A DNA stretch of 64,000 nucleotides from an uncultured Acidobacteriota bacterium (GCA_963836075.1 CAWIIB010000008.1:64001-128000), one strand, 5' to 3'. Shown: positions 13,131-64,000, counted from the stretch's first letter. Numbers and translations are program-made. The notes: generated by a model from the letters alone, not told the origin.

Positions 13131-13190
13131 GGCGAACTGGGGGAAGGGCGGATGGACAACCGGTGCCGGCCGCCCCATGATTGAAACACC

Positions 13191-13988: not shown

Positions 13989-14028
13989 TCTTGTACAACA
14001 TGTGGGGCCTCCCGGGAGGTGCTGACCG

Positions 14029-35410: not shown

Positions 35411-35500
35411 TGACAAGCGGGGTATCATTGCTCGGCCCGCGGGCTGGTTTTCACTGACAGATCACGAATCGTTAACCGGTGTCTGAAATTATCATCCATT

Positions 35501-36358: not shown

Positions 36359-37025
36359 TATTTCCGTCATCAAAATCAAGACGCCCGACGAACGGCAGCA
36401 GGCGCTGGATGTCTGCGCCACCGTCTACCACGACGAGAAGCGATGGGTGATAAACATCGAGGAGTTCCTCCCCGCCGAAGACCTGGAGAACGAGGACATC
36501 TCCTGGTTCGCCGCCAAGCTGGACGGCCGCACGCTGGGGGTCACCCGCGTTCTCTACAAGCTGCCCCTGGAACTCTATGACGACTACGGGCTGGAACTGC
36601 TGGACAAGAGCATCGACGTGAAAGCGTTTCTGGCGCAGAACCGGATCGCCGAGGTTGGCCGTTTTGCCGTGCTGCCGGAGTACCGGGGGAAGATCATGGT
36701 GGCCGCGGCCCTGATGCGGGCCTGTGTCTCGGAAACGATCCAGCGCGGGTTCACCCACTTCATCACCGACGTCTTCGAGGACGATCCCAACACGCCCCAC
36801 GGCTTTCACAAGCGGGTTCTCGGTTTCCAGGAGGTGGCCACCCACACCCACGGCGAACTGAACTGCGAGAGCCGCCGGATCACCATGCTGCTCGACTTCA
36901 AGGCGGCCTATGCCTCGGCGGTGACCAGGAAGGGCTGGCTCTACAAGTACATCATGAGCGAGTGGGACGAAACCATGAAGTCGCAGCTCTCCGGCCCGGC
37001 CGGCGGCCCCGCTCCGGGCTCCTGA
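36342..37025 (+). CDS. GNAT-fold N-acyltransferase (FeeM/LuxI-like)
   Basis: Motifs VY..EK.W, LGVTRV, LPLE and IAEVGRFAVLPEYRG; RBS AAGGAGG; overlaps the end of plsC. Confidence 0.7.
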   Translation: MSLKNDISVIKIKTPDERQQALDVCATVYHDEKRWVINIEEFLPAEDLENEDISWFAAKLDGRTLGVTRVLYKLPLELYDDYGLELLDKSIDVKAFLAQNRIAEVGRFAVLPEYRGKIMVAAALMRACVSETIQRGFTHFITDVFEDDPNTPHGFHKRVLGFQEVATHTHGELNCESRRITMLLDFKAAYASAVTRKGWLYKYIMSEWDETMKSQLSGPAGGPAPGS

Positions 37026-37069
37026 CCCCGGGAAGGGCCATCCCGTCACCAGAGTGAAACTATCCGCCC

Positions 37070-47784: not shown

Positions 47785-50256
47785 CTACTCGCAGCGCAGG
47801 GTCACCGCCGGGTCCACCAGGGTGGACCGCCGCGCCGGGATCCAGGAGGCCAGCAGGGCAACAGCGGCCAGCACCAGGGAGACGACGATGAAGGTCAGCG
47901 GGTCGGTGGCGCCGATGCCGTAGAGCAGGTTGGAGAGCAGGCGTGTGCCGGCCAGGGCGATGACCAGTCCGATGGACAGGCCGATGGCGGTGAGCCTGAT
48001 CCCCTGCTTGAGCATCATTTTGATGATGTCCCCCCGCTGCGCGCCCAGCGCGGTGCGGATGCCGATCTCGTGCATCCGCTGGTTGGCGGTGTAGGACATC
48101 ACGCCGTAGAGGCCCACCGCGGCCAGCACCAGGGCCAGCAGGCCGAAGAGGCCGAAGCCGGCGGCGGCAAAGCGGGCGGGGAGCAGGATGAAGCCGATCA
48201 GCTCGGTGAGCCGGCCGGAACTGGCCAGCGCCATGTCGGGGCTGATCTCGCGAAAGATCTCCCGCACCGGTGTGGCGGCGATCAAAGGATCGCCGGTGGT
48301 GCGTACCAGCAGCGTGGCCATGAAATCCTGGGTGGTCTGGGACATGGGGAGGTAGACGTGGGGCCGCGGTTCCTCGCCGATCAGCCAGTACTTGGTGGTT
48401 TTGGCCACGCCCACCACTTCCAGGAACGGCCCCTCGGCGTCCTCGCGGCTGATGGTCTTGCCCAGCGGGTTTTCGCCGGGCCAGTAGCGGTCGGCAAATG
48501 CCTGGTTGACGATGGCCACCCCCGGGGTCTGGGCGCTGTCCCCGTCATTGAAGTCCCGTCCTTCCAATAGCGGGATGCCCAGGGTGCGGAAACTGTCGCT
48601 GCTCACCGTGGCGAAGCTGGAGTTGGTGTCGATCTCCTCCGGGTCGGCGTATTGATGCCCCTCGATCCAGAAGTTTGTCGAGGAGATGGTGAGGGTCAGC
48701 GGGACACAGTCCTCGATACAGGCCGATTCCACTCCCGGCATGGCCCGGGTGCGCTCCAGAAGCCGGTTGCAGAAGGCCATGGTCGATTCTTCCTGGTCGG
48801 GCAGTGTGCCGAAGTCGAAGGCCACGGCCAGGATGTTCTCGTGGTCGAAACCGGGGTCGATGGCCCGGGCCTGGAGCAGGCTGCGCACGAAAAGGCCGGC
48901 CACGATGAGCAGCACCAGCGACGAGGCCACCTGGGCCACCACCAGGGTGTTGCGGAGTTTTGAGCGCCGAAAACCGAAGCGCCCCGCCCCCCGGTCGTCC
49001 TTCAGGGTGGAGAAGAGGTCAACCCGGGTGGCGCCCAGGGCGGGGAAGAGACCGAAGAGGATGCCGGCCAGCATGGAGACCCCCGCGGTGAAGAGCAGCA
49101 CCCGCCGGTCGATGGCGAAGTCGAGATCGAGGGCCACGTTGAACGGCAGCTGCGGGATGGCGGCTACCAGCAGGTCGAGGGTCCAGGAGGAGAGCAGCAG
49201 GCCGGCCGCTCCGCCCAGCAGCGCCAGAAAGACACTCTCGGTGAGCATCTGCCGCACGATGCGGCGGCGCGGAGCGCCGAGGGACAGCCGGACGCCGATC
49301 TCGCGGCGGCGGGCCACCGAGCGGGCCAGCAGCAGGTTGGCCACGTTGGCGCAGCCCACCAGCAGGACCAGCCCCACCATCGACATCACCAGCAGTGAGA
49401 TCATCTTCGCCACCCGCCTCATGTTGGGGGTCATGGGGATCACCCCGTTGGCCGGCTCCAGCATCGCCTGCTCGCCGGTGTAGCGTTCGGCGTCCACCTC
49501 CACCATGCCGGCCGCGGTCACCGTCATGCTGGCCCGGGCCTGTTCCAGGCTCAGGCCGGGCTTGAGCAGGCCGATGGCATGGAGAAACCCGCTCCCCCGC
49601 TGCTCCAGTTGCCCCTGCATTTCTGGGCGCAGCTGCCCCATGATAGCCAACGGCACCCAGAGGTCCGGCGAGGGGATGGCCGTGGCCCCGGTAAACCCCT
49701 GGGGGGCGATTCCCACGATGGTGCACGGTTTCCCGCTGATGGTGATGGTTTGCCCCACCAGATCAACCGCACCGCCATATTCCCGCTGCCAGAAGCGGTA
49801 ACTGAGGACCACCACCGTCGGGCCGTCGGGCCCCTGGTCGTCATCGGGGGTGAGCACTCTGCCGTGGAGCGCTCCCACGCCCAGCGTGCGGAAGTAGTTC
49901 CCGGTGGCCACCTGCCCGAAGCGTGTCTCGCTGCCGCCGTCGCTTTCCATGCTCAGTGGGAGAAAGGCGTATACCGCAAGTTCTTCGAAGATGTCGCTGC
50001 GCTCCCGGTAGTCGAGGTAGTCGGGGTAGGAGAAGACCTCCAGGTCGCTTCCGTCCATCGGGTCGCGGAAGAGGCTGACCAGCCGGTCGGCGTTTTCGAA
50101 GGGCAGCGGGGTGAAGACGATGGTGTTGACCAGGCTGAACATCGCCGTGTTGACCCCGATGGCCAGGGCCAGGGTGAGTACCACCGCCACGGTGAACCCG
50201 GGGTTGTTGAGCAGCATTCTCGCCGCGTAGCGCAGGTCGTTGAACAGCACGCTCAT
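47785..50256 (-). CDS. Duplicated MacB/FtsX ABC permease (ADOP-like)
   Basis: DLRYA.R.L...PGF, L.IG.NTAMFS, CANVANLLLAR, REIG.R..LGA (twice) and PARR...VDP...LR.E. Confidence 0.92.
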   Translation of the reverse strand: MSVLFNDLRYAARMLLNNPGFTVAVVLTLALAIGVNTAMFSLVNTIVFTPLPFENADRLVSLFRDPMDGSDLEVFSYPDYLDYRERSDIFEELAVYAFLPLSMESDGGSETRFGQVATGNYFRTLGVGALHGRVLTPDDDQGPDGPTVVVLSYRFWQREYGGAVDLVGQTITISGKPCTIVGIAPQGFTGATAIPSPDLWVPLAIMGQLRPEMQGQLEQRGSGFLHAIGLLKPGLSLEQARASMTVTAAGMVEVDAERYTGEQAMLEPANGVIPMTPNMRRVAKMISLLVMSMVGLVLLVGCANVANLLLARSVARRREIGVRLSLGAPRRRIVRQMLTESVFLALLGGAAGLLLSSWTLDLLVAAIPQLPFNVALDLDFAIDRRVLLFTAGVSMLAGILFGLFPALGATRVDLFSTLKDDRGAGRFGFRRSKLRNTLVVAQVASSLVLLIVAGLFVRSLLQARAIDPGFDHENILAVAFDFGTLPDQEESTMAFCNRLLERTRAMPGVESACIEDCVPLTLTISSTNFWIEGHQYADPEEIDTNSSFATVSSDSFRTLGIPLLEGRDFNDGDSAQTPGVAIVNQAFADRYWPGENPLGKTISREDAEGPFLEVVGVAKTTKYWLIGEEPRPHVYLPMSQTTQDFMATLLVRTTGDPLIAATPVREIFREISPDMALASSGRLTELIGFILLPARFAAAGFGLFGLLALVLAAVGLYGVMSYTANQRMHEIGIRTALGAQRGDIIKMMLKQGIRLTAIGLSIGLVIALAGTRLLSNLLYGIGATDPLTFIVVSLVLAAVALLASWIPARRSTLVDPAVTLRCE

Positions 50257-50954
50257 TGGGCGGTCTCCTCGTCCACCACCCGTCCGTCAAAGAGGTGGAT
50301 GGTCCGCTGGGCGTATTGCAGGTAGCGCGGGTCGTGGGTCACCATGCAGATGGTGGTTCCCCCCTGGTGCAGCTTGCGCATCAGGTCCATCACCACCTCG
50401 CCATTGCGCGAATCGAGGTTTCCGGTGGGCTCGTCGGCCAGCAGGATCAGCGGTTCGCCCACCAGCGCCCGGGCCACCGCCACCCGCTGCTGCTGGCCGC
50501 CGGAGAGCTGGGAGGGATAGTGGTTCAGCCGGTGTTCCATCTCCACCAGCTGGAGCGCTTCACGCACCCGTTGCCGGCGGTCCGCGGTGGCCGTGCCGCG
50601 GTAGACCAGGGGCAGCTCCACGTTCTCGCAGACGGTCAGGTCGCCGATCAGGTTGAAGCTCTGGAAGATGAAGCCGATGGTCCGGTTGCGCAAGGTGGCC
50701 CGCTGGGCATAGCTCAGCGACTCCACCGGCTTCGAGTCGAGCAGGTACTGGCCCTCGGTGGGGGAGTCCAGCAGGCCCATGTTGGACAGCAGTGTCGATT
50801 TGCCGCACCCTGACGGGCCGGCCACGGCCACGAACTCGCCCTTGCTGATTTCCAGGTGCACCCCGGAGAGTGCGTGGGTCTCCACCTCATCGGTGAGGAA
50901 GACTTTTTTCAGTCCCACCATCCGGATCAGCGATTCATTTCCCATCTGGCTCAT
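50253..50954 (-). CDS. ABC transporter ATP-binding protein (LolD/MacB-type)
   Basis: Motifs GPSGCGKST, LSGGQQQRV, LADEPTGNLD and MVTHD. Confidence 0.95.
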   Translation of the reverse strand: MSQMGNESLIRMVGLKKVFLTDEVETHALSGVHLEISKGEFVAVAGPSGCGKSTLLSNMGLLDSPTEGQYLLDSKPVESLSYAQRATLRNRTIGFIFQSFNLIGDLTVCENVELPLVYRGTATADRRQRVREALQLVEMEHRLNHYPSQLSGGQQQRVAVARALVGEPLILLADEPTGNLDSRNGEVVMDLMRKLHQGGTTICMVTHDPRYLQYAQRTIHLFDGRVVDEETAQ

Positions 50955-50969
50955 CGTTCCACCTTTCAC

Positions 50970-52223
50970 TTATTTCAGTCGTATCCGGTCGTTGTGGTCC
51001 CACGACGACGTATCCGAGACAATCACCTGGTCGCCCTCGGCCAGTCCTTCAAGAACTTCCACGTGCTTCACCGAGCTGAGGCCCAGCCGCACTGGCACCC
51101 GCACCGCCGATGTCCCGTCCGGGTCCAGCCGGAAGAGGCCCACGCTGCCGTTTTCGGGGCTGGAAGCCGGGCGGCGGGTGAACAGGACGTCGTCCAGCCG
51201 CGTGATCTCCACCACGCCCTCCACGCTCATCTCCGGCCGCGCCCCCCCGGGCAGTTCGCCGGACAGCTCAACCTCCACCAGCACCGTGGTCTCGCGCACC
51301 GCCGGGTCGATGCGGACAACCGTGCCGGGGACGATGCCGTTGCGGGTGTCCACCGACACGGCCTGGCCCAGCTGCACCTCCCCGGCCCGGGTGGCCGGGA
51401 TGCGCAGCTCGGCTTTCAGGCGGCTGGTCTCGGCCACCAGGGCCAGGCTGGTCCCTGGCGCCAGCTGCTGGCCCACCTCCACCGGCACTTCCTGGACCAC
51501 GCCGGCCAGGATGGAGTGCACTTCAAGTGAGCTGAGCTGTTCGGCACGCAGGGCGGCCATGGCCCTTTGCTGGTCCACCCCGGCCCGTTTGGCTTGCAGC
51601 TGGGCCTCGATGGACCGGGCGGTCATGGCCAGCCGTTTCTCCTCGATCGACCTGCGGGTGGCCAGAGAAGCAGCCACGGTTTCCGAGATGTTGAGGTCGA
51701 GGGCGGCAATCAGCCCCTCCCCGGCCAGGGCCCGGTCGGCTTCCAGCTTGAGCTGCGCCTGGAGGTATTCCGACTCCACGGCGGCGGCCTGGGCCTGCTG
51801 GTTCAGCTCTTCGCTGCGCAGCTGCACCTCCAGGCTCACCAGTTCCGCTTCGGCCCTGCGCAGTGCGCTCGATGCGTCCAGTGCGGCCTGCTGTACTTCG
51901 GGATTGCTGAGGATCATCAGCGGCTGGCCCGGTTCCACCCGCTCTCCCGGGTTGACCATGATCCGTTCAACCCGGCCGCTGGTGGCCGCCGGAATCCAGC
52001 GGATTTCCATGGGGACCAGGGTGCCGTACCCCCGGATCTCCCGCATCATCGGCCCCCGCTCCACGGTGCCGATCCAGAGGGTCTCCCGGTCCACCGCCGG
52101 CACGGCCGGGCCGAGCAGGGAGAGGCCCCAGCTGATCAGCGCCACAGCCGCCACTGCGGCGGCGCCCATCAGGTACCGCCGCTGCTTTTTCCGTGTCTTT
52201 ATGCCTTCACGTTTTGTGTCCAC
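50970..52223 (-). CDS. HlyD-family periplasmic adaptor
   Basis: GTG start after GGAGG; N-terminal TM, lipoyl-like halves, coiled coil and GL..GD.VI.SD. Confidence 0.9.
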   Translation of the reverse strand: MDTKREGIKTRKKQRRYLMGAAAVAAVALISWGLSLLGPAVPAVDRETLWIGTVERGPMMREIRGYGTLVPMEIRWIPAATSGRVERIMVNPGERVEPGQPLMILSNPEVQQAALDASSALRRAEAELVSLEVQLRSEELNQQAQAAAVESEYLQAQLKLEADRALAGEGLIAALDLNISETVAASLATRRSIEEKRLAMTARSIEAQLQAKRAGVDQQRAMAALRAEQLSSLEVHSILAGVVQEVPVEVGQQLAPGTSLALVAETSRLKAELRIPATRAGEVQLGQAVSVDTRNGIVPGTVVRIDPAVRETTVLVEVELSGELPGGARPEMSVEGVVEITRLDDVLFTRRPASSPENGSVGLFRLDPDGTSAVRVPVRLGLSSVKHVEVLEGLAEGDQVIVSDTSSWDHNDRIRLK

Positions 52224-52268
52224 CTGGATAGATCCCTCCGTTGCGATTCCGTTACGGGAGAGATGTAT

Positions 52269-52284
52269 AGCAAGCGGTGTGCCA
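52269..52284 (-). promoter_or_regulatory. Sigma54 (-24/-12) promoter of the hlyD-ABC operon
   Basis: Minus strand reads TGGCAC-ACCGC-TTGCT, an exact consensus match, about 45 bp upstream of hlyD. Confidence 0.85.
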
Positions 52285-52413
52285 GGAGGAGGTGAGGTGA
52301 GGGTCATCCCACGGGGTCTCGCGGAAGTTCTTTGATCTCAGATGGATGGAGGGTGCCGTGGGCTGAGGGGGCCGGCAGGCCATACGGGACCGGTCTCCTG
52401 GGGGCCGGGGAAG

Positions 52414-52455: not shown

Positions 52456-52935
52456 TCAGTACGCTGACTTTGGATTGAGCTGGGCGGCCAGGGCCGCCGT
52501 GCCGCCCTTGAGGATCCAGATGTCTTTCAGCCCCACATGGCGCAGGCCCAGGGCAACGGCGGTGGCCCGGTGTCCTGCCTGGCAGACCACCACCACTTCT
52601 TTTCCCGCCAGTGTGCCGATTAGTTCAGGGGTGAAAACCTGGTCCATGGGAATGGTGAGGGCTCCGGGGAATGTGAATCCGATGACACCGGTTTCTCCGG
52701 GTGTCCGCACGTCGAGCACCAGCGGCGGCTCTTCCGTTTTCAGAGCGCAGAGAAATGTCTCCACCGGCATCATTCGCAGGGCGGCCATGGTGTCGGCGGC
52801 CGAGAACGGGGCGAAGAACCGCTGGTAGCTGGCGGCCAGTTCCTCGTCCCAGGTGACGGCCTCGCCGGCGGTAACTGCCGTCGTACAGCAGAGGGCCACC
52901 AGCAGGATGGCTGAAAGTGTACTCTTCATCTTCAT
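52456..52935 (-). CDS. Exported rhodanese-like protein
   Basis: Signal peptide; motifs LDVRT..E, VVCQAGHRA and LKGG. Confidence 0.85.
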   Translation of the reverse strand: MKMKSTLSAILLVALCCTTAVTAGEAVTWDEELAASYQRFFAPFSAADTMAALRMMPVETFLCALKTEEPPLVLDVRTPGETGVIGFTFPGALTIPMDQVFTPELIGTLAGKEVVVVCQAGHRATAVALGLRHVGLKDIWILKGGTAALAAQLNPKSAY

Positions 52936-53009
52936 TTCTCCTTCTTCAGTGAAAACGAGGTGACCGTCACTCGTAGATTCTGTCATTGCGAGCCCCCGCG
53001 GGTCGGAGT

Positions 53010-54293
53010 TCACGATGACCTGTCGCCAATGCTCAGCCAATCTTCTTCGATCAGCCGGCTGGCCTCCCGTGCTTCTTCACGGATGCGCGGGATCTGGTCC
53101 TGCAGGGCGGCCACCACGGCTTCCCGCTCCTCCAGCAGCCGGCGGAACCGTTCCTGCAGGCACTCCAGGCTCAGCTCCTCGATGGGCAGGACAAAGCGCT
53201 CCAACCCCAACTGGGCCATGATCCCGGCTGTTTTCGGCTGGTAGCCCACGGCCAGCACCGGCACACACATCGTCATGGCGAAGATGTTGGAGTGCATCCG
53301 CGTGCCGACAAAGATGTCCATCTCTCCGCAGAGCCCCCTGATCCGGGACGGGTCCAGTTCCTCCTCCAGGATGTGGATCCGCGGGGCGCCTCCAGCCTGG
53401 GCCGCCGCCCGGCGGGCCGCCTCACGGTCGTCGTCCCCACCACTGACGTAGGTCACCTGGGGGATGAAGAAGACCGCGGCGTTCATCTCCTCCGCCAGCC
53501 AGCCGGCAAAGCGGCCCAGGGTCTGTTCGTAGTGCTGCTGATCCCCCGGGGTACGGAACCAGGAGCGCACGGTGAGGCCGACCCTGATCCCCCCTGGCGG
53601 TGGCGGCGGCAGGCCCTCCGGCGGCTCCGCTGCGGTGAGCAGGAACGCGGCATCGGCGGCAGTTCGGACGGCGGGCATCTTCCGCCGGCCCGACCAGCGT
53701 TCCAGCCGGCGCCGGGTGTCGTCCTCCCTGGCGAAGACGATTCTCACCCCGACCAGGGAGCGCTGCACCAGCCACTCCTGAAAACGGCCGGCAAAGGGGC
53801 CGATGGACTGGGAGAAGAGGTAGACCGGTTTGCCCAGCAGAGCGGCACCGTGGAAACCGTAGATCACCGAGAGCAGGACGACGTTCCCCTTGAGTCGTGA
53901 CCGGGTGTAGAGGTAGCCGCCGCCGGCGGCGATCACCAGGTCGGCCTTGTGGTAGTTCCGCAGCAGCCGGCGCAGCGGGTTCCAGACCGGCAGGTCGAGG
54001 CCGAGGAACCGCCGGCCGGCGATCCAGAGCAGGGTCAGAGGGTAGATGAAAAACAGGAAGCCCAGTCCCTGCACGGCGGTGTTGGCCGACAGCGATCTCT
54101 TCAGCGAGACAAAGGAGTCGATCACCGTGCCGGGGAAACCGTCCGCTTCCCCCGGGCCCGCCGCCGAGGAGATGGTGAACTCTGCATCGCGGAACGCGTC
54201 CCGTGACCGCAGGTCCTGCACCATGCCGGCGACGATGCCGGCATCGCCCTTGTTCCGGGCGCTGTAGGCGTTGGTGATCAGGATCTGCGGCAT
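53010..54293 (-). CDS. Polysaccharide pyruvyl transferase family (WcaK-like)
   Basis: Motifs N.GDAGI, GGGYL, SQSIGPF, ARE, DAAF, GTRMHSNIFA and Y.PK. Confidence 0.88.
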   Translation of the reverse strand: MPQILITNAYSARNKGDAGIVAGMVQDLRSRDAFRDAEFTISSAAGPGEADGFPGTVIDSFVSLKRSLSANTAVQGLGFLFFIYPLTLLWIAGRRFLGLDLPVWNPLRRLLRNYHKADLVIAAGGGYLYTRSRLKGNVVLLSVIYGFHGAALLGKPVYLFSQSIGPFAGRFQEWLVQRSLVGVRIVFAREDDTRRRLERWSGRRKMPAVRTAADAAFLLTAAEPPEGLPPPPPGGIRVGLTVRSWFRTPGDQQHYEQTLGRFAGWLAEEMNAAVFFIPQVTYVSGGDDDREAARRAAAQAGGAPRIHILEEELDPSRIRGLCGEMDIFVGTRMHSNIFAMTMCVPVLAVGYQPKTAGIMAQLGLERFVLPIEELSLECLQERFRRLLEEREAVVAALQDQIPRIREEAREASRLIEEDWLSIGDRSS

Positions 54294-54303
54294 CAACGGG
54301 ACC

Positions 54304-56925
54304 TCAGAGGGTGGACGATTCCAGCAGCTGCAGTCCGGCCCGTTCCATCCGTTCCCGGTAGGTGTCGTGGGAGTGGTAGTGGTGGACAAACTGCTCCTTG
54401 ACCGAGAGATCACTGTCCAGGACGGCCAGGTCGACGGCTGACGCACCGAGCTCGGCCTCGATCGTCCGCTCCAGCCCGGTGGTCTCCTCGCCGTTCTCCC
54501 GCCGCTGGGCCAGCAGGGCCGGCAGGTAGCCGCCCGGGCCGAGCTTGACCTCGGTGGAGGTGAACACGCCCGCCGCCTGCACCGCTTCCACCTGCTCGTC
54601 GATCCCCACCCGGCAGTTGGGGAAGATCCAGGCCCGGCCCCCGGGCAGGGCGAGAAAGTAGACCGCGGCGATGTAGGAGAAGAAGGGGTTGATCCGCGCC
54701 CGCCCCGCCGGCCGGTTGTCGGTGGCCGGGGTGGTGATCTCGTTCCAGGTGGGCATGCCGATGATCAGCGGCGACTGTTTGGTCACCGGGAAATGCTTCA
54801 TCAGCTGCCGGGCGTGACTGATGGTGGCCAGGATCTCGAAGTTGAGATTGTCGTTGAGGCCGAGAATGGAGCCCAGGGCCACCTCCAGGCCGGCACGGAG
54901 CGCCCGTTCCTGGGCCCCGAGACGGAAGGCGAAGCCGTCCCCGCCGGTGAGGATCTTCCAGTGGTCGTCGATACCCCAGGCCTTGGGCCCGGAGATGATC
55001 TGCCGGTTGTAGCAGGTCCGGTCGTAGGTCTCCTGCCAGACGATCATCGAATCGGCGCCCAGCTGCTTCAGCCCGCGGTACTGGTTCTCGGTCATCGCCA
55101 TGGTGCAGAAGCAGATCTTCAGTCGGACCCCCAGCGATTCCCCCAGCGCCCGGGTTCTTTGCACCAGCGAGGGCAGCAGGGTGCGCACGAAGCGGAAGTC
55201 GTCACCTCCGACGAACTCGATGTAGTGGATGCCCTTGTCCACCAGGTAGCGGACCTGCTCCATGATCAGGTCGCCGGAGATCTTCAGCCGCGGCATGGCG
55301 AAGTTCGAGGAGCGCCAGCCGCAGAACCCGCAGTTGCTCGCGCAGGCGTTGGACGCCTCCACCGGGGCCATGGGGATCACCGAGTTGCTGAAGGTCAGCC
55401 GCCGCAGGGCTGTGGAGGTTTCCAGCACCTGCTGCTTGAGTTCCGGGAAGACGGGGGAGTGGATGCCGTTGATCAGCAGGTTGACCTCGGCCAGGGTCGG
55501 TTCATCGCCTTTTTCACAGCGCTGGAGGATAGCGCGCAGCTGGTCCGTGTCGGGCGTGGTCCGCTGGAGGCTCAGCGGGAACAGCTCCTTTAGCGAGCGG
55601 CGGCTGATCACCGCCGATTCGGTGGAGCGGTCGGGTGGCGGCGGCTCTCCGGGCAGGGCCAGCCGGGAAACCACCGAGCGCAGTTTCTGTGCCGGGTCGC
55701 GGCGGACCCGGTCCACCAGCGAGACCTGAACGTCCACGCCACTGCCGGTGAGCCGCTGCAGCGCTTCGGTGATCTCGTCCACAGTCGATGCTTCCAGCGT
55801 TCCCGAGGCGCTGATCTCCACCACCATGTGGTGCAGATCCTCCTGGACCAGTTTCCACTGGCCCACACCGGCCGCGTGATCGAGGATCAGGAAGAAGGGG
55901 TGCGGGGAGAGCACTTCGCCATCGGGCAGCACCACGAAGTCGCCGCTGCGCCCGCGGATCTCCCGCATCAAAGGCAGCCCCCGCCCGCAGGCTGGCGATT
56001 CCACGGAGAGCGTGCCCATATCGCCCTGCTGGTAGCGGATAAAGGGCATGGAGAAGTTGGTCAGGTTGGTGATGTACAGCTCGCCTTCCATACCGGTTGG
56101 TTGCGGCACACCGTCCTGCAGAGACTCGAGGATCACCGTGTCGGCGCTGAGGTGATACCCGGGACAGACCGGGCACTCCCAGGCGATCACCGACCCGGCC
56201 TCCTCCGAGGCGTAGACATCCACCACCTCGGCGCGGAAGGTGTCGGCCAGCAGTTGCCGGCCGGCGGCGTCGAGCATGCCCGAGGTGCTGGCGATCAGCG
56301 GGATGCGCAGGTCGGTGATGCCCCGCTCCTGCACTGCCCGGGCAAAGAGCTTCAGGGTCAGGGCGTAGCCCTGCAGCAGGTGCGGCTGCCAGGCCCTGGT
56401 CTCCTCGATCCAGGCGTCGGGCGGGTCGCCGGTGGCCAGCACCCGGCGGCGGAAGAGGCCCAACTGCTGGTACCACTGTTTTCGTGCGCCGCCCTGGGGC
56501 CGGGCCTCGAAGTAGAGCAGGCGGTGCCCGGGTTTCAGTGTTCGGCCCAGGTGGGCCCGCAGGAATGAGGCGTTCATCGCCGTGCGGTCCGCCGGCCCGT
56601 AGCGGATCTCCAGCGGCTCGCCGGTGGCCCCGCTGGTGCGGCTGCTCATCAGCTTGCGCGGGTCGGCCTGGCTTGAGATCAGCCGCTCCGGCGGCTGCTC
56701 CTGGAGGTCCCGTCTGGTGGTCAGCGGGATCTTCTGCAGGTCGTCCACACCCCGGATCTCCCGGGGGTCGAGGCCGGCCTCGCGGAAGAGGTCACGGTAA
56801 TAAGGGACGGTGGCGCAGGCATGACTCACCAGCCGGTGCAGCATCCTGTCCTGCCGCTGCCGGATCCGTTCCGCCGAGTCCCACTGGGATCTCAGCAGCG
56901 ACGCCAGTTGTATCGCACCCCTCAT
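54304..56925 (-). CDS. Fusion ORF: CapK/phenylacetate-CoA-ligase-like adenylation domain + ThiH/HydG/NosL-type radical SAM domain
   Basis: N-half has VPYYR, TSGATGEP, YASEE, MPFIRY..GD and GRS.D. C-half has CASNCGFC, WQETYD, GPK, RL.AQERA..AG, LG..LGL, GPGGY and EQF. Confidence 0.8.
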   Translation of the reverse strand: MRGAIQLASLLRSQWDSAERIRQRQDRMLHRLVSHACATVPYYRDLFREAGLDPREIRGVDDLQKIPLTTRRDLQEQPPERLISSQADPRKLMSSRTSGATGEPLEIRYGPADRTAMNASFLRAHLGRTLKPGHRLLYFEARPQGGARKQWYQQLGLFRRRVLATGDPPDAWIEETRAWQPHLLQGYALTLKLFARAVQERGITDLRIPLIASTSGMLDAAGRQLLADTFRAEVVDVYASEEAGSVIAWECPVCPGYHLSADTVILESLQDGVPQPTGMEGELYITNLTNFSMPFIRYQQGDMGTLSVESPACGRGLPLMREIRGRSGDFVVLPDGEVLSPHPFFLILDHAAGVGQWKLVQEDLHHMVVEISASGTLEASTVDEITEALQRLTGSGVDVQVSLVDRVRRDPAQKLRSVVSRLALPGEPPPPDRSTESAVISRRSLKELFPLSLQRTTPDTDQLRAILQRCEKGDEPTLAEVNLLINGIHSPVFPELKQQVLETSTALRRLTFSNSVIPMAPVEASNACASNCGFCGWRSSNFAMPRLKISGDLIMEQVRYLVDKGIHYIEFVGGDDFRFVRTLLPSLVQRTRALGESLGVRLKICFCTMAMTENQYRGLKQLGADSMIVWQETYDRTCYNRQIISGPKAWGIDDHWKILTGGDGFAFRLGAQERALRAGLEVALGSILGLNDNLNFEILATISHARQLMKHFPVTKQSPLIIGMPTWNEITTPATDNRPAGRARINPFFSYIAAVYFLALPGGRAWIFPNCRVGIDEQVEAVQAAGVFTSTEVKLGPGGYLPALLAQRRENGEETTGLERTIEAELGASAVDLAVLDSDLSVKEQFVHHYHSHDTYRERMERAGLQLLESSTL

Positions 56926-57009
56926 GGCTCATCCCTCAACGCTGGTGTGAACGGCGATTACTATCCTGACTCCAGGCTCTGCCAACCCCGTTTGAGACAG
57001 CGACCTCGG

Positions 57010-57399
57010 CTAGCGAGCCACAACATGCTCAGCGAAGAGCTCGAGAACCTGCTCTTTTGATCTGGACCCATCGGCAACATCGACTGTCAATTTCTCCAGG
57101 GCCTCATCCGAGGCCGCGAGTTCATGATCGCTGATCAGAAGAAAGAGTTCAGCTGTAGTTACCGCCACCCTCTTGTTGCCGTCGATGAAAGGATGATTCT
57201 TGCAGAAGTGGAAGTGGTAGGCCGCAGCCATGTCGCTCAATTGGGGATGCAGGAAGTTCCCACCGAAAGTGGAGCGCGGCATGGCGGCGGCTGATTCGAG
57301 CAACCCGCGATCACGCAAAACGGGATCTCCTCCGAATTCTTCGATGACCCGCTGGTGGATGGCGAACACATCGGAAACGGTTAGAAAGACTGGAGCCAT
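57010..57399 (-). CDS. doc: Doc-family (Fic) toxin
   Basis: Motifs RD.GLLESA...P and NHPFIDGNKR. Confidence 0.9.
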   Translation of the reverse strand: MAPVFLTVSDVFAIHQRVIEEFGGDPVLRDRGLLESAAAMPRSTFGGNFLHPQLSDMAAAYHFHFCKNHPFIDGNKRVAVTTAELFLLISDHELAASDEALEKLTVDVADGSRSKEQVLELFAEHVVAR

Positions 57400-57638
57400 T
57401 ATTCCGCCAATCGCTTGAGGACTTTTCTACGTTTGTTGACGACGTATTCCAGTTTGTCGGCGATTGTCGCCTTATCGACTTGAGACGGGTGAGCTGGCGA
57501 GACGATCAGATGTCCGTCCTGAATAGTCAGCTGAACCTGTCCGTTTTCCTCCAGTCCAAGGATTTCAAGGATTGGCTTGTCAAGAATCAGCGCGTTGCTG
57601 TTACCGACTTTGCGAAGCTGCTTTATCATGATCATCAC
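57399..57638 (-). CDS. AbrB/MazE-family antitoxin
   Basis: Motifs LRKVGNS.ALI.DK.IL..LGL and K.RKVLKRLAE; abuts doc. Confidence 0.88.
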   Translation of the reverse strand: MMIMIKQLRKVGNSNALILDKPILEILGLEENGQVQLTIQDGHLIVSPAHPSQVDKATIADKLEYVVNKRRKVLKRLAE

Positions 57639-58408: not shown

Positions 58409-59153
58409 TTATATTCTCAGGTCCGCAATCACCGGCATGTGATCGCTGGCCACCTTGACCGATGGCAAGCGGCCCCGCCTGCCATTGATGATCTTCAGAC
58501 CCCGGCAGAATATTTTATCCAACCCGCTGGTGGGGGAAAACGACGGGTAGGTCAACATGGCGTTCTGGTAGCCATGCTTCCGGTTGGTGGCACAATCAAA
58601 ACCGAGGATTTCCGTGAGCATGGGCGCCAGCCGTTTCATCAGATCGTTGAAATCCCCGGCAATGATGCAGGGGGCGGCAACGTCCAGTGCGGTAAATTCA
58701 GGCGAGCGGACCACCAGGCCCAGCTGCCGGGGCCGTTCCCTGAACGACAGGCCCAGGTGCACGTTGAACACCGGCAAGGTTCTGGGCTTTTGCTTTCGCG
58801 TGGGAACTGAAAACCGGGTGTAGAGACAGCCCCTGGATTTGCGCTTCTCGATGGTCAGGTCGAGGTTTTTCGTCTCCACGATGGGAAAGCGGCTGAGGGT
58901 GGCGTTGCCATACATCCCCTTGCTCAGTTTCACATTCAGCCCGACGGCATAGTGGGGGTAGCCGGCCAGATAGGCCAGTGTTTCCGCCAGATCCAGCCGC
59001 CGGGAACGGGGAACGCCCACATCCACTTCCTGCAGCAGGTACGATATCCGCGTCGTAGTGGGCGATGATGTTGGCGATCCGCTCCGGCCGGAAGAGCCGG
59101 TCCACACCGATGGCCCGGTGGATGTTGTATGACATGATCCGGAGCTTCATCAT
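58409..59153 (-). CDS. Endonuclease/exonuclease/phosphatase family protein; frameshift near 59040
   Basis: SYNIH in one frame; LLQEVD, GDFND, LDKIF and ASDHMP in another. Confidence 0.85.
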
Positions 59154-59240: not shown

Positions 59241-60632
59241 TCAGAGATAGCCAAGATCGGCCAGCCGGCGGCTCACCTCTTCGTCCTCGTGGAACGCCTT
59301 GCCCGAATCGCCGCCCCCCAGGCGGGCCGCCTCTTTTTCCGCCAGCTCCAGGTGGTCCTTCACCCGCCGGCGCAGCGGCTCTGCCTGCTCCGGCCGCTGG
59401 GCAATGACGTTCACCTTCTCGGCCGGGTCGATCTCCAGGTGGTAGAGCTCCTCCCGGCCGCCCTCCTCGTCGAAGATATACTTCCAGCCCTGGTGGCGGC
59501 AGGAGACGGTGCGGTAGACCTCGGGGGCCGACCCCCGCCGCTGGCGTCCGCCGGCGTGGGTTGCCGCTGAGATGACCGCATCCCCCCGGTCCCCCCCACC
59601 GTCCATCCGTTCACGGACACTGCGGCCCTGGAAGGCGGCCGGGGCTTCCACACCCAGCAGGTCCAGCAGGGTGGGGGCGAGGTGGATCAGGCCGGTCTGG
59701 GCCTCCACCGTCCTGCTCGCACCGGCACCGGCAAGGATCAGCGGGACACGCAGCAGCTCGTCGTAGAGCTGGGGGCCGTGGGTGAAGCTGCCGTGTTCGC
59801 CGAACATCTCGCCATGGTCGGCGGTGACGGCCACCAGGGTATGTCCTTCCAGCCCCCGTTCTTTCAGGCCTTGCACCAGCCGGCCGATCATCCGGTCCAT
59901 CCGCTCCACCCGCTGTTGGTACAGCTCGCGCATCAGCCGCAGGGGGCGCCGGCGGGCGCCGATCAGCAGACCGGTGATGGCGCCGAGATACTGCAGCCGT
60001 TGACCGGGACCCGGCTTTTCCAGCGGCAGGTAGGGGTAGTGCACGTCCATGTAGTGCAGCCAGGCGAAGAAGGGGCGTTCCCGGTCCTCGTCGATCCAGT
60101 CCAGTGCCCGGCGGGTGGCCGTCTCGCCCTTGAGGAAGGGGGCGCCGCCCCGCTGGAACATGGCCTGGAAGAAGAGCAGCAGGGCCAGGCTGCGCCGGCC
60201 GACGGCGTCCTGTATCGCCTTCTTCAGCCGCTTGATCGCAGTCGGTTTGTCTGTTCTCGCCGCCGCCGGCGGCCTGCCAGAAGTCGTCGTAGCGCTCGAA
60301 GCCCCGGGCGTAGCCGCACTGCTCCGAGAGGTAGGGGTTGTCGAGGTTGAAGCCGGCGGTGCGGCGGCCCGCCGCGGCCAGGGCCTCGGCCAGGGTGGCC
60401 GCCCCCGGGGGCAGGCCGGTCTCGCCGCTGACCAGCGGGTGGAGCGAGCAGAGGATGGCCGGGAAGGCCGAGGGTGTGCGGGGCCCGTTGGAGACGGCAT
60501 CGGTGAACAGCACGCCTTCGGCGGCCAGCCGGTCGAGGCAGGGGGAGGGCCCGCCGCCGGACTGCAGGCAGCCCAGGGCGTCGTGCCGCAGGGAATCGAT
60601 GGTGACCAGCACCAGGTTCATCGGTTGCGCCA
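59241..60632 (-). CDS. Sulfatase-like alkaline-phosphatase-superfamily protein; frameshift near 60250
   Basis: Motifs LVTIDSLR.D, GPRTPSAF, HYMDVHYPY, TADHGE, LYDELLRVPL, ELY.L..DP.E and RL..LGYL. Confidence 0.85.
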
Positions 60633-61719
60633 TCTGCCCTTCCCCGCGGCCCGTCCGGCCAGTTTGAGAATGTCCTTTTCCAGCTCCATCCTGGTCAGGG
60701 TGTAGGGCGGGCAGTGCCGGCACTCGGCCCGCAGCAGTTTGTCCCGGCGGTAGCCGAGGTTCTCCCGGCTGTAGAAAAGCCGGTGGGCCGGGGTTCTGGC
60801 CGCGTTGCCGATCCCCTTGCTGTGCGAGCAGTAGTAGAGGGTGCCGTCGAGGCCCAGCAGCACCCCGGCGAAAGCGTAGTAGCAGGAGAGGGTGCGCTCC
60901 CGGCCCTCCTCGAGCATGCGCAGGATCTCGTCGTACTTCAGTGCCGAGGGGTTGGCGGCGGAGAACTCGGCCGCCAGGCCGCGGATAAACCCGGTGAGTT
61001 TTTCCCGGTCCTCGTCGCCGAGGAACCGCTGGCGGCAGTCCTGGTTGTGAAAGCGCTCGCGCTCCTCGCCCAGCACGAAGGAGAGCGGCAGCTCCTGTTC
61101 CCGGGCCCAGCGCAGCAGCTCCGGCGCCTGCCCCAGGTTGTCGCGCAGCAGGACGCAGTTCAGCGAGCAGCTGAGCTGCCCCCGGCCGCGCCGCTGCTTG
61201 AGCATCTCCAGCGTGGCGCAGGCCTTGTCAAAGGCGTGCTCCACCCCGTAGATCTCGTCCAGGATTTTATCGGCGCCGTGGAAGGAGACCGACACGTCCA
61301 GCAGCACCCCGCGGTGCCCCAGCAGGCTGGTGATCGTCTCCAGCATGCCGGTCAATCCGCTCGGTGAGCAGGCCGTTGGTGGTGATGCTGACCCGCTTCA
61401 GCCCGGGGTTGTTGCTGACGAAGATACCGACGAGCTCCATCAGGTCGGTGCGCAGGAACGGCTCGCCGCCGCTGATCCCCACATACTGCAGTTTGGAGAA
61501 GAGCCGGTCGCTGAGCAGGCGGCGCCACTGCTCGAGGTTCAGCTCGCTGTCCGCCGCGGCCCGGTCCTCCCACAGCCCGCACATCACACACCGGGCGTTG
61601 CAGCGGTGGGTGGGGATCAGGTGCAGCATGCGGGGCAGGAAGGGCTTGCCCCGCAGCGGCTGCAGCAGGTTGTAGCGGGTCCAGGTGGCGACGAGTTCGG
61701 GCAGCAACGACAGTCTCAT
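60618..61719 (-). CDS. Radical SAM protein with SPASM/Twitch-like C-terminus; frameshift near 61350
   Basis: Motifs CNARCVMC, SGGEPFLR, TNG and CY...DG.LYYC...CRHC. Confidence 0.85.
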
Positions 61720-63200
61720 GGTGCTCCGGCGGCGGCCGCCCCCTTTCCCCGCAGCCGGCTCAACAACCGGTGCAGCCGGGACCGGCGCCAGAGGATGGCC
61801 AGGCCGGTGGACGCCGGCAGGGCCCGGAAGTGGATGCCGAAACTGACCGAGAGCTTGTAGACCAGGTTGAACAGCCGGTTGGAGGGCAGCTTGACCAAGC
61901 GGCGGGTCAGCGGGGCCAGCCAGGGCAGCAGCACGGTGAGCGGGAAGAGCTTGTGCAGGTTCTCCTGCAGCTTTTTCTCATCGGGGTCTTCATACTTCAG
62001 CGGCGCTTCCAGACCAAAGCCGAAGGACGACTCCATGGCCTGCAGGTCCTCGTCGTCCACCATGCCCAGTTCCACCGCGTAGGTGTGGATGTCGGTGCGG
62101 GGGTAGGGCTGGAGCACGGCCACCGAGGCGAAGTGCGGCCGGCACTGGAGGTTCAGCTCCAGGGTCTCCCAGTCGGCCTCGAACGACCCGCCGGGGATGG
62201 CCAGGATGTTGGCGGTGACCAGCTTGATCCCCGCCCCGGTGATGGTGCGGGCGGCGTCGATGATCTCCTGCCGCGACATGTTGCGCTTGAGGATCTCGTT
62301 GCGCACCCGGTCGTTGCCCGCCTCCAGGCCCATGGTCATGCGGTGGCAGCCGGCCGCGCGCAGCAGCTGCACCGTCTCCCCGGTGACGTAGTTGGCCCGC
62401 ACCAGGCAGGAGAAGGGCAGGCCGATCTGCTCGCGGTATTTTTCGGCGAACTCCCGGGTCCACTCCGGGTGGAGAATGAACAGGTCGTCCATGAAGCGGA
62501 TAAAGGTGTAGCCGCCGGCCTTGACCTGCCGCAGTTCCTCCATCACGTGGTCCACGCCGCGGCGGCGGATGAATTTGCCCTTGCCGCGGTAGATCTGGCG
62601 GTAGAGGTGGTTGTAGCAGTAGGTGCACTTGTAGGGGCAGCCCCGGCTGGTGATCACGATGGCCTGGGCCAGGCTGGCGGGCATGGCCCGGCGGAAGATG
62701 TCGTGGTCGGGCAGCGGCAGCTGGTCCAGGTCCTCCAGCAGCGGGCGCACCGGGTTCTTGTGCAGTGTGCCGTTCTCCCGCACCCACCAGTTCAGCAGGC
62801 CGCTCACCGGCTCCCCGCCGGCCCGGGCGCGGGCCATCTCCAGCATGGGGTACTCCCCCTCGCCGATGCAGACCCCGTCCACCCCCTCCTGCTCGATGAT
62901 CTCGGGGAAGAAGGTGGGGTGGGGGCCGCCAAAGACCGACCAGGCGGAGGGGTGGTCCCGCTTCACCGCGCGGTTCACCTCCAGGTAGTGCCGGATGTAG
63001 GCGGTGGAGGCGCTGAAGGCGAGGATGGTGGGTGCGCCGTCGGCCAGGGTGGCGGACAGCGTGCCGGCGTCCGCCGGCACCACCCGGGTCTCGAACCCGT
63101 GCTGCCGCAGCAGGGCGGAGATGACCATCACCCCGGGGTACTGGTTGTACTCCTTCTCCAGGTTGTGCACCGGCCAGAGAATGCGCATCAATCGGGTCAT
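61716..63200 (-). CDS. B12-binding-domain radical SAM protein
   Basis: Motifs GGPHPTF, GEGE, DLDQLPLPD, SRGCPYKCTYC, DDLF and G.EAG. Confidence 0.9.
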   Translation of the reverse strand: MTRLMRILWPVHNLEKEYNQYPGVMVISALLRQHGFETRVVPADAGTLSATLADGAPTILAFSASTAYIRHYLEVNRAVKRDHPSAWSVFGGPHPTFFPEIIEQEGVDGVCIGEGEYPMLEMARARAGGEPVSGLLNWWVRENGTLHKNPVRPLLEDLDQLPLPDHDIFRRAMPASLAQAIVITSRGCPYKCTYCYNHLYRQIYRGKGKFIRRRGVDHVMEELRQVKAGGYTFIRFMDDLFILHPEWTREFAEKYREQIGLPFSCLVRANYVTGETVQLLRAAGCHRMTMGLEAGNDRVRNEILKRNMSRQEIIDAARTITGAGIKLVTANILAIPGGSFEADWETLELNLQCRPHFASVAVLQPYPRTDIHTYAVELGMVDDEDLQAMESSFGFGLEAPLKYEDPDEKKLQENLHKLFPLTVLLPWLAPLTRRLVKLPSNRLFNLVYKLSVSFGIHFRALPASTGLAILWRRSRLHRLLSRLRGKGAAAAGAP

Positions 63201-64000
63201 CCTCGCTTTTCCAGCACCGCGGTGACCCTGGTCACCAGGCGCTCCCGGAGATACCAGTTCTGCCCGGGCCGGGGAAAGACCCAGCGGGGCACGTGCTCCC
63301 GGACCAGTGCCGGCGTGAAGGGGGAGGCATCCACCAGGGCGTTGAACCGCCTGATGGTCATTCTATTCAATTGCCGCAGCTGGGCAACCGTGCGGGCCGC
63401 TTCCACCTCCGCCAGCTTTTGCGCAGTGATCAGCCCGCCGCCGTCACCGGCCGCGGCGCGGAACCCCTCCTTCCAGACCTCCAGCAGCGGTTCGTCGGTG
63501 AAGAAACGCTGGGCCCAGGGGATGGTGACATAGGCGAAGAGATGGGCGCCCCAGGCAGAGCCGAAGGGCGGAAAGACCAGCTGCATCGTCCCGCCTGGTT
63601 CCAGCAGCCGCCAGCATTCCAGCATGGCCTCCGCCGGCCGCTCCAGGTGCTCGAAGGCGTCGTTGAGCAGCGCCAGCTGGAACCGGCCGTCCTCCAGACC
63701 ATCCAGCCGGCCGGCATCCCGCACCAGGAAGGTGGTGTTGTAGGCTTTCCTGTCCTCGGCGAACTCCGCGGCCCGCTCCACCCGCTCGGGGTCCTGGTCC
63801 ACCGCCACCACCTCTCTCGCCCCGTTGAGGGCATACCAGACTGATTTTCCGCCCAGGCCGCAGCCCAGGTCGAGAACCCGTTTTTTGCGAATGTCGTGGT
63901 GTGGAGCGAACTGCTGCAGTGACTCGCCGGCCGTTTCGAACTCCCAGCGGGCGTAGGCCAGGTGGTCCCTCCGCGCGCCCAGGGACGGGGCGCCGGCCCG
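63197..64000 (-). CDS. Class I SAM-dependent methyltransferase, 5' partial
   Basis: Motif I VLDLGCGLGGK near 63850-63880; DAFEH, LEPGG and FPPF.S.WGAHL; the frame runs off the window end. Confidence 0.85.
   Translation of the reverse strand, partial: RAGAPSLGARRDHLAYARWEFETAGESLQQFAPHHDIRKKRVLDLGCGLGGKSVWYALNGAREVVAVDQDPERVERAAEFAEDRKAYNTTFLVRDAGRLDGLEDGRFQLALLNDAFEHLERPAEAMLECWRLLEPGGTMQLVFPPFGSAWGAHLFAYVTIPWAQRFFTDEPLLEVWKEGFRAAAGDGGGLITAQKLAEVEAARTVAQLRQLNRMTIRRFNALVDASPFTPALVREHVPRWVFPRPGQNWYLRERLVTRVTAVLEKRG

Follow-up and report, generated by a model that had tools for sequence, protein, structure and literature searches.

A PaaK-like ligase fused to a radical SAM domain of a separate clade with the ThiH/HydG/NosL fold in an uncultured Acidobacteriota bacterium

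Introduction

The group of radical S-adenosylmethionine (SAM) enzymes formed by ThiH, HydG and NosL counts few characterised reactions, namely those of a tyrosine lyase, a tryptophan lyase and CofH. In nosiheptide biosynthesis, the acid product of the tryptophan lyase NosL is adenylated by NosI. Here we analyse a gene, P0001, in which a PaaK/CapK-like adenylate-forming (ANL) ligase is joined to a radical SAM domain with the ThiH/HydG/NosL fold. It lies in a stretch of 64,000 nucleotides (nt) from an uncultured Acidobacteriota bacterium (GCA_963836075.1 CAWIIB010000008.1:64001-128000), called the window throughout, and had been singled out in a reading of that sequence alone (the original prediction). 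We describe its two domains, the clade to which the radical SAM half belongs (named clade X), the history of the fusion and the genes that accompany it.

The comparison leans on the substrate site of ThiH. In the L-tyrosine-bound structure of ThiH (PMC9046217), R300, an arginine common to ThiH, HydG and NosL, binds the amino nitrogen and the carboxylate of the substrate. E158 serves as the partner of the carboxylate, and T299, S318, S321 and R306 hold the phenolate; HydG has an acidic residue at position 128 instead of E158.

Results

P0001 is a two-domain protein

As originally predicted, positions 54304-56925 hold a single open reading frame (ORF) of 873 amino acids (aa); it is on the minus strand, which the prediction had not given. 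P0001 is a true two-domain protein, with an ANL ligase in its N half and a radical SAM enzyme of the ThiH/HydG/NosL fold in its C half. The only Pfam match was Radical_SAM (PF04055) at residues 524-693 (32.1 bits versus a cut-off of 29.5) and, together with the CX3CX2C motif, found exactly where the prediction had put it, this score places the C half in the radical SAM superfamily. The cysteines C528, C532 and C535 are invariant among the fused homologues, and invariant or nearly so in the wider clade-X alignment. The predicted hallmarks of the ThiH/HydG/NosL group are all present as well: WQETY (630-634), GPKA (646-649), FRLGAQERALRAGLEV (667-682), GPGGY (796-800) and EQF (844-846). Over residues about 460-720, NCBIfam gave matches to ThiH (1.7e-26), HydG (9e-16) and NosL (2e-7), and also to PylB and HydE, while hhalign aligned the C half to a ThiH/HydG profile with an E-value of 1.4e-51 over 355 columns. 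An AF2 model of this half, made from 42 clade-X sequences, had a predicted local distance difference test score (pLDDT) of 96.6 and a predicted template-modelling score (pTM) of 0.94. Its best Foldseek matches were HydG (4rtb/4wcx, template-modelling (TM) scores of 0.71-0.74), ThiH (7pd1, 0.74/0.84) and NosL (4r33, 0.70/0.76), followed by HydE, PylB (TM 0.65/0.80) and BioB; a look-up in the ESM Atlas returned unnamed BATS/Radical_SAM clusters only. The modelled full TIM barrel with its N-terminal helical domain, together with the head-group arginine described below, suggests membership of the ThiH/HydG/NosL structural group.

The CapK/PaaK-like character foreseen for the N half was borne out by NCBIfam matches over residues about 15-360 to the DVU_1553-family ligase (2.3e-41) and PaaK (1e-23), and by a match to the PaaK structure 4r1l (6e-21). 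In an alignment to PDB entries 4r1l and 2y4o, TSGATGEP (97-104), YASEEAG (239-245), IRYQQGD (301-307) and IRGRSGD (324-330) pair with the P-loop, YxxxE, YxxGD and GRxxD motifs of PaaK. QKLRSVVS (about 417-424) is conserved across the alignment of fused homologues, and its lysine is presumably the catalytic A10 lysine of ANL enzymes. To judge from these core motifs, the N half belongs to the PaaK-like branch of the ANL superfamily. The NCBIfam matches of both halves are all far under the curated cut-offs.

The radical SAM half falls in a clade of its own

When scored against the curated families of its nearest relatives, the C half reached 93.2 / 94.6 bits for ThiH (TIGR02351; cut-off 380, model positions 53-253 only), 57.4 bits for HydG (TIGR03955; cut-off 312, model positions 32-269 of 470) and 30 bits for NosL (TIGR04158; cut-off 400), and it is a member of none of the three; against the hidden Markov model (HMM) of PylB it scored 54 bits, versus a cut-off of 348. 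The true thiH of the genome is found on another contig (C1), where it scores 448 bits and adjoins thiG and thiS-thiF. Likewise, Evansella sp. AB-P1 carries a ThiH (513 bits) alongside its clade-X member (115 bits). The annotated window contains no thiG, thiS, thiF or hyd genes, in line with what the original prediction said of thiazole and hydrogenase-maturation genes, and hence no thiH synteny. P0001 is not a thiamin or hydrogenase gene. About 17 kb from it, outside the window, a thiE gene (TMP-TENI, 2.2e-50) was noticed at G000:C8:137333-137977 (L037 9333-9977, plus strand), on the other strand and beyond a PBP1 gene, with no further thi gene there.

A phmmer search of 1.84 billion representatives yielded 621 hits at E<=1e-3 and 45 at E<=1e-30, and these 45 clusters are what we define as clade X. 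Scores fall sharply from X to ThiH/HydG-like proteins, at about 113 bits and below, and the long proteins among the weaker hits join HydE or HydF to HydG and include no ligase fusion. P0187, P0191, P0198 and P0277 represent natural HydE-HydG fusions (two with an N-terminal HypC-like domain) plus one HydF-HydG fusion. In a maximum-likelihood tree of 55 rows with HydE as outgroup, the 32 X rows were monophyletic (97 in the Shimodaira-Hasegawa-like approximate likelihood ratio test, SH-aLRT) on a branch of 1.41 changes per column. They were sister to the 20 ThiH, HydG and ThiH-like rows (SH-aLRT 84), inside neither the ThiH nor the HydG clade; this tree and the one below are quick searches with SH-aLRT as their only support and hold no NosL sequence. 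A search for NosL (TIGR04158) at E<=1e-50 in 401 Streptomyces genomes gave no match, the controls being without a match too. As judged from these sequences, clade X is a small, separate and uncharacterised sister group of ThiH and HydG. The finding that the original prediction had named as fatal to it, a radical SAM half lying within ThiH and sharing thiG synteny, was not made: the half has its own clade and no thiG nearby.

The amino acid head-group site is kept and the side-chain site is changed

The tyrosine ligands of ThiH were mapped onto P0001 through the genome's own ThiH with MAFFT L-INS-i and, independently, with hhalign; both agree, and conservation was counted over 32 X rows. R300 corresponds to R772, which is arginine in all 32 rows, and S318 to S790 (serine in 30/32). 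The remaining ligands are replaced: T299 by C771 (cysteine in 29/32), R306 by Q778 (glutamine in 31/32), S321 by V793 (valine in 30/32) and E158 by C607 (cysteine in 30/32), so that X does not share the set of tyrosine ligands of ThiH and HydG. At ThiH position 126, P0001 has E570, and all 32 rows have glutamate. Two insertions are specific to X, of about 14 aa after GPKA and of about 40 aa after PGGY. An arginine of the R300 type is absent from the three HydE rows of that alignment, which holds no PylB sequence. This pattern suggests that the head-group site for a free alpha-amino acid has been kept and the tyrosine pocket rebuilt, with two conserved cysteines probably lining it. The aromatic substrate that the original prediction had thought of is not supported, and tyrosine in particular is not: four of the five residues which in ThiH act as side-chain or carboxylate ligands of tyrosine are replaced in X.

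The fusion is genuine and most simply arose once

Among 5.8 billion clustered proteins, 20 hits were retrieved, the query included, and 14 of the other 19 span both halves, with at least 87% coverage of the 873 aa and 51-89% identity; they stem from NCBI, JGI, ENA and Logan assemblies. In the alignment of these proteins both domains are conserved and the register is identical down to 51% identity, while the residues between them (about 426-457) are variable and gap-rich, as befits a true inter-domain linker. It holds an in-frame GTG (V439, 55609-55611) and an off-frame TGA (55608-55610). Logan contigs from four studies overlie the ORF with no net frameshift. Record 9 of X10 (5,984 nt) spans 54200-56931 with only two compensating 1-nt indels (54300/54303), and record 3 of X1 (55471-55742) and record 28 of X5 (55553-56774) cross the linker with 0 gaps. 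The full-length fused gene was present in 3 of 301 sampled genomes of the phylum, all three from one genus, and the carriers of fused or PaaK-linked forms are metagenome-assembled genomes (MAGs) throughout. The fusion is genuine and conserved.

The set of neighbourhoods compared below contains four fused loci: the window, L001, L002 (L048 denotes the same contig) and L047. In L003, from Chromatiales, the two halves are separate neighbouring genes that share one strand and follow the order of the fused gene; the spacer between them has 118 nt, with AGGGAG before the ATG. In a tree of 34 X loci the four fused rows were monophyletic (SH-aLRT 99) and L003 was their sister (90); a fused clade with a split locus as its sister is most simply explained by a single fusion of neighbouring genes.

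Carboxylate-activating ligases recur beside clade X

Genes around clade X were called by codon usage at 26 genome loci and 19 metagenome loci and clustered with BLAST, and representatives were checked with Pfam and NCBIfam; neighbour families outside the checked representatives rest on the BLAST clusters of these calls, and several contigs are short. At 15 of the 34 non-redundant X loci, a carboxylate-activating ligase is fused to X or lies no more than five genes away; three unrelated ligase types are represented. Four loci are fused and three have a PaaK-like gene within five genes; seven have an ATP-grasp gene directly downstream, and one has a classical AMP-binding gene two genes away. The pairing of ligase and radical SAM enzyme thus recurs in fused, adjacent or nearby genes.

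A gene of the pyruvyl-transferase-like family directly follows the fused gene in 4/4 cases, and PaaK-type X loci are found in glycan settings in three phyla. L004 (Acidobacteriota) combines PaaK-like paralogues and a Wzx-type flippase with X, which is on the opposite strand, and further with a methyltransferase, a SPASM radical SAM protein, a glycosyltransferase of family 2 (GT2), an epimerase and a pyruvyl transferase. The genes of L008 (Verrucomicrobiota) are a sulfotransferase, X, a gene for 301 aa, a PaaK-like gene, a sulfatase-like gene, a GT2-pyruvyl-transferase fusion and a B12 radical SAM gene, in addition to a GT2, and its sulfatase-like and B12 radical SAM families are those of the window (Table 1). 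In L047, the fused gene and its pyruvyl-transferase-like partner are followed by an M1-peptidase-like gene and then by homologues of the two GT2s, the SPASM enzyme and the epimerase of L004. Three details were noted in passing. The PaaK-like paralogues of L004, at least four in tandem at 119-6780 (minus strand), are 428-441 aa long and 35-37% identical to the N half. In both L008 (6454-7359, minus strand) and L065 (795-1733), the PaaK-like gene and X enclose a gene whose product, about 300 aa long, matched neither Pfam nor NCBIfam; the two copies are 53% identical. P0019 (843 aa) is another fusion of a ligase with an amino-acid enzyme, here a PaaK-like ligase with a HisC-type aminotransferase dependent on pyridoxal phosphate (PLP).

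At the seven ATP-grasp loci, from Bdellovibrionota, Elusimicrobiota and others, X stands first and the ATP-grasp ligase directly after it; next come genes for an EamA exporter, a periplasmic binding protein and a histidine kinase. In L019 the ATP-grasp protein matched Pfam ATP-grasp_4 (1.6e-24) and PylC (3.9e-12). This five-gene cassette was seen in L018-L022, L026 (= L061) and L060, in MAGs of Bdellovibrionota and Elusimicrobiota, its binding protein is of the Leu/Ile/Val type, and it looks like a module that makes, exports and senses a modified amino acid or dipeptide. In L015 (Streptomyces sp. W16, 2445-15220), a polyketide synthase (PKS) flanks X on one side, and on the other come, two genes away, a classical AMP-binding ligase and a P450. 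The neighbours of X in Evansella, in an alphaproteobacterium and on two metagenome contigs are a class III aminotransferase, a 278-aa protein without Pfam or NCBIfam hit, a PLP enzyme of the Cys/Met type and a glutamine amidotransferase. Stand-alone X genes are present in cultured bacteria, namely Evansella sp. AB-P1, Streptomyces sp. W16 and Sinorhizobium terangae ICMP 13649. Clusters resembling those for natural products were recorded at L010 4917-17457 and L016 3686-13142 and in L051, L053 and L015; L010 also has a fusion of Ldh_2, PEP-mutase-like and methyltransferase domains, and L016 a Lys/Orn N-monooxygenase and a transaldolase-like gene.

The surroundings of P0001 in the window

The features of the window are listed in Table 1. 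The gene next to P0001, which the original prediction took for a polysaccharide pyruvyl transferase, is indeed a member of PF04230 (91.7 bits versus 25.3); it stays under the equivalog cut-offs of CsaB and WcaK. Upstream, all on the same strand, follow the EEP gene, the sulfatase-like gene, an ORF of 245 aa, the B12 radical SAM gene and the methyltransferase, and beyond the window a glycosyltransferase of family 4 (GT4), a sulfotransferase, a SPASM protein, a second GT4 and a second sulfotransferase. Given these same-strand genes, with two GT4s and two sulfotransferases among them, the glycan-cluster setting of the original prediction holds. The export pump on the other side (47785-52307) is kept in L001 and L002 and absent in L047.

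Table 1. Positions of P0001, its parts and neighbouring genes, counted from the first nucleotide of the window
Feature	Position	Strand	Evidence or remark
Fused gene P0001, 873 aa	54304-56925, including stop codon 54304-54306	-	ORF; both halves kept together in 14 other protein clusters
PaaK/CapK-like ANL domain, residues 1 to about 425	55651-56925	-	Profile and PDB sequence matches
Pro/Ala-rich variable linker, about residues 426-457	55555-55650	-	Gap-rich, poorly conserved alignment columns
Clade-X radical SAM domain (ThiH/HydG/NosL fold), about residues 458-873	54307-55554	-	HMM, AF2, Foldseek, hhalign
CX3CX2C radical SAM cluster motif CASNCGFC, residues 528-535 (C528, C532, C535)	55321-55344	-	Sequence
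C771-R772	54610-54615	-	R772 is the counterpart of ThiH R300; C771 in place of ThiH T299
Pyruvyl-transferase-like gene, 8 nt downstream of the fused gene	53010-54296	-	Pfam PS_pyruv_trans 1e-25; CsaB 2.9e-28
Rhodanese-domain protein	52456-53040	-	Common only to the closest relative, L001
HlyD adaptor	50970-52307	-	Part of tripartite export pump
ABC ATPase	50253-50969	-	Part of tripartite export pump
MacB/FtsX permease	47785-50256	-	Part of tripartite export pump
Sigma-54 response regulator	46342-47742	-	
PAS histidine kinase	45008-46324	-	
M1-peptidase-like protein, 767 aa	42665-44968	-	L047 homologue 73% identical, directly after the pyruvyl-transferase-like gene
Endonuclease/exonuclease/phosphatase (EEP)-family protein	58409-59107	-	Homologue abuts the fused gene in L047
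Sulfatase/phosphodiesterase-like protein	59241-60500	-	Family also in L008 (Verrucomicrobiota) and L048
B12-binding radical SAM enzyme	61716-63200	-	Family also in L008 and L048 (91% identity in L048)
Class I methyltransferase, running past the window end	63197-64000	-	

Some further observations were made in the window. A pair of genes in a stretch of lower G+C content between the EEP gene and the fused gene (57010-57638) consists of a Doc/Fic toxin gene (57010-57399, minus strand; Pfam Fic, 1.5e-20) and, overlapping it upstream by one base, an ORF of 79 aa (57399-57638, minus strand) that reads as AbrB/MazE-like and is a candidate antitoxin. The pair looks inserted, since L047 has the EEP homologue immediately next to the fused gene. 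The sulfatase-like protein matches only positions 147-301 of Pfam Sulfatase, the homologue in L008 matches positions 2-300 and that in L048 has 498 aa; the window ORF may be truncated or mis-started at its N-terminus. On the plus strand, at 34307-39589, genes for a PGA_cap-like protein, a PlsC-type acyltransferase, a FeeM-like N-acyl amino acid synthase/GNAT protein and an MMPL transporter stand in a row, a possible cluster for the synthesis and export of amino-acid lipids.

Discussion

A proposed function

We propose that P0001 is a bifunctional tailoring enzyme of an exopolysaccharide-type cluster, in which the radical SAM domain makes an acid from an amino acid other than tyrosine and the fused ligase activates and transfers it, and we rate this at about even. 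In the radical SAM domain, a free alpha-amino acid would be bound by R772 and probably by E570, in the manner of ThiH, HydG and NosL, and the 5'-deoxyadenosyl radical would abstract a hydrogen from it. The side chain would then be fragmented or rearranged in the pocket rebuilt around C607, C771, Q778 and V793, and the product would retain a carboxylate for the PaaK-like domain to adenylate. The activated acyl group could be passed to a nucleophile, either an amino or hydroxyl group of a sugar or coenzyme A (CoA), on the way to an acceptor that is part of the polysaccharide or destined for it, and the translationally coupled pyruvyl-transferase-like protein would act in the same series of steps. 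By analogy, this would be the logic of NosL followed by NosI, or of PylB followed by PylC, within one polypeptide. The fused gene thus probably makes and attaches a decoration derived from an amino acid. A sequence of making an acid and then adenylating it fits the presence of three different types of carboxylate-activating ligase beside clade X. The original prediction is upheld in the two-domain enzyme, its glycan-type cluster and the recurring pairing; the aromatic nature of the substrate is the part that is not supported.

Several points weigh against this proposal. Substrate, product, order of steps and acceptor are all inferred, and the members are known from sequence alone. The N domain scores far under every curated ligase cut-off, and so its acid and its acceptor cannot be read from homology. 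Directly after the module come a pump and a two-component system and no glycosyltransferases; the latter are 7-12 kb upstream, past the inserted toxin-antitoxin pair. Finally, 19 of the 34 X loci have no ligase in the fetched flanks, some contigs being short: 12 from Sumerlaeota, four with the 278-aa partner and three others. In the Sumerlaeota loci, X sits amid envelope housekeeping genes (prs, GHMP kinase, murG, lgt) with no ligase nearby. Of five Sumerlaeota genomes searched, three have distant PaaK-like genes (24-28% identity) and two have no PaaK-like match at E<=1e-10. Clade X is therefore not always in need of a PaaK-like ligase.

A bolder version of the proposal is possible, if somewhat doubtful: clade X would represent a new type of reaction in the ThiH/HydG/NosL fold, acting on a non-aromatic amino acid (for instance by a thiyl-assisted rearrangement or fragmentation) with C607 and C771 at the sites that hold the carboxylate and phenolate of tyrosine in ThiH, and its own fused ligase would install an undescribed acyl or amide group on a sulfated, pyruvylated exopolysaccharide.

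Alternative explanations

That the single ORF is an assembly artefact, in which one indel merged neighbouring genes, deserves hardly any weight. The original prediction had raised it on account of a GTGA in the linker, and it was right about the codons; a genuinely split, adjacent version in L003 could likewise be brought forward. However, 14 other clusters from four sources are fused in identical register, the gene occurs in three genomes of the genus, and contigs of other studies cross the linker without a frame-breaking indel. Very improbable, too, is a C domain that works as an isofunctional tyrosine lyase, a second ThiH or HydG giving dehydroglycine, CO or CN. Although ThiH and HydG are its best matches in sequence and fold and the equivalents of R300 and S318 are retained, the family scores are low (ThiH 94.6 versus 380 bits, HydG 57 versus 312) and the true thiH-thiG-thiSF locus is elsewhere in the genome. 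At least 29 of the 32 members have other residues in place of the phenolate ligands (T299, R306, S321) and the carboxylate partner (E158), X forms a separate clade on a long branch, and the HydG match stops at position 269 of 470, without the C-terminal domain of HydG.

The two domains might also work in the reverse order, the PaaK-like domain attaching an ordinary amino acid to a sugar or sugar nucleotide and the radical SAM domain editing it in place; the attachment could run through the side chain of the amino acid or to a uronic or pyruvyl carboxylate. The order of the domains, ligase before radical SAM, also found in the split L003, is consistent with this, as are the two X insertions, which could widen the active site for a bulky substrate, and the coupled pyruvyl-transferase-like enzyme, which from the chemistry of its family would add a new carboxylate to the glycan. 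Yet we consider it unlikely, as R772 and E570, the ligands for the head group of a free alpha-amino acid, are invariant in X, stand-alone X genes exist without glycan genes, and the ATP-grasp loci have the radical SAM gene first. Quite unlikely, in turn, is a module whose product is a small molecule for secretion (a small amide or modified amino acid serving as signal or antibiotic) instead of a glycan substituent, exported by the HlyD/ABC/MacB pump under two-component control. In its favour, the window, L001 and L002 have the pump directly behind the fused gene and its partner, and in the window the sigma-54 regulator and the kinase come next; the ATP-grasp loci with exporter, binding protein and histidine kinase are laid out in parallel, and X is found in natural-product-like clusters (L015 with PKS, AMP-binding ligase and P450; L010; L016). 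Against it, L047 keeps the fused, pyruvyl-transferase-like and M1 genes and has glycosyltransferase and epimerase homologues at the place of the pump, the PaaK-type X loci of three phyla come with GT2/GT4, flippase, sulfotransferase and pyruvyl-transferase genes, and the constant partner is a polysaccharide-type transferase. A thiocarboxylate route, combining the ANL domain with the rhodanese gene, was considered and dropped as the principal explanation; that gene is common only to L001. The tailoring of a polysaccharide with an acid made by the radical SAM domain remains the explanation that we prefer.

Significance

Clade X retains the head-group site but has a rebuilt side-chain site, which makes it a clear candidate for new radical chemistry. 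The fusion serves as a Rosetta stone that ties clade X to a PaaK-type ligase and a pyruvyl-transferase-like enzyme in a defined three-protein system. We know of no established role for the many genes annotated as CapK/PaaK-like in polysaccharide loci, and the present case offers a possible function for them. Some sources name fused homologues "2-iminoacetate synthase ThiH" or "PaaK-like", and the annotation of such genes as thiH or 2-iminoacetate synthase is misleading.

Comparison with known systems

With ThiH (TIGR02351; 7pd1), the C half shares the (beta-alpha)8 barrel and N-terminal helical domain (TM 0.74/0.84), the CX3CX2C motif, WQETY/YQEVY, GPK, PGGY...EQF and the equivalents of R300 and S318; it differs in its score (94.6 bits versus 380), its separate clade, the lack of thiG synteny, the fused ligase, the two insertions and four changed ligands. 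The [FeFe]-hydrogenase maturase HydG (TIGR03955; 4rtb, 4wcx) is its best match by Foldseek and by PDB sequence. The two are also alike in having no glutamate at the position of E158 and an acidic residue on the neighbouring strand (E570 of X at ThiH position 126; residue 128 in HydG, PMC9046217). In contrast to HydG, X scores 57 bits versus 312, has no C-terminal auxiliary-cluster domain and no hydE or hydF nearby, and has the tyrosine ligands replaced.

A parallel to the proposed chemistry is the pair NosL/NosI, where a radical SAM enzyme with the ThiH fold makes a carboxylic acid from an amino acid and an ANL enzyme activates it (NosL TM 0.70/0.76). However, these are separate proteins of a thiopeptide cluster, whereas P0001 has a fused PaaK-type ligase in a glycan context and scores 30 bits versus 400 for NosL. 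In PylB/PylC, the methylornithine synthase PylB, a radical SAM enzyme belonging to this structural group, makes a new amino acid that the ATP-grasp ligase PylC couples, and the ATP-grasp protein of L019 matches PylC; against PylB itself, the C half has 54 bits versus 348.

For the N half, the nearest systems are the PaaK/CapK/F390-synthetase ANL ligases (4r1l, 2y4o; AjiA1 6wuq), to which residues 17-358 align with P-loop, YxxxE, YxxGD and GRxxD motifs. Stand-alone homologues, of about 430 aa and about 50% identity, are many and are annotated as phenylacetate-CoA ligase family. The N half falls outside PaaK proper (TIGR02155, 83.6 bits versus 646), with no paa genes nearby and its C-terminal subdomain unaligned in phmmer, and outside the DVU_1553 family (NF045666, 141.9 bits versus a cut-off of 300). 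A search of the full-text literature, supplements aside, found no description of clade X or of a fusion between a ligase and a radical SAM enzyme. What this locus contributes is the fusion and its single origin, along with the analysis of the active site and the wider association of clade X with ligases.

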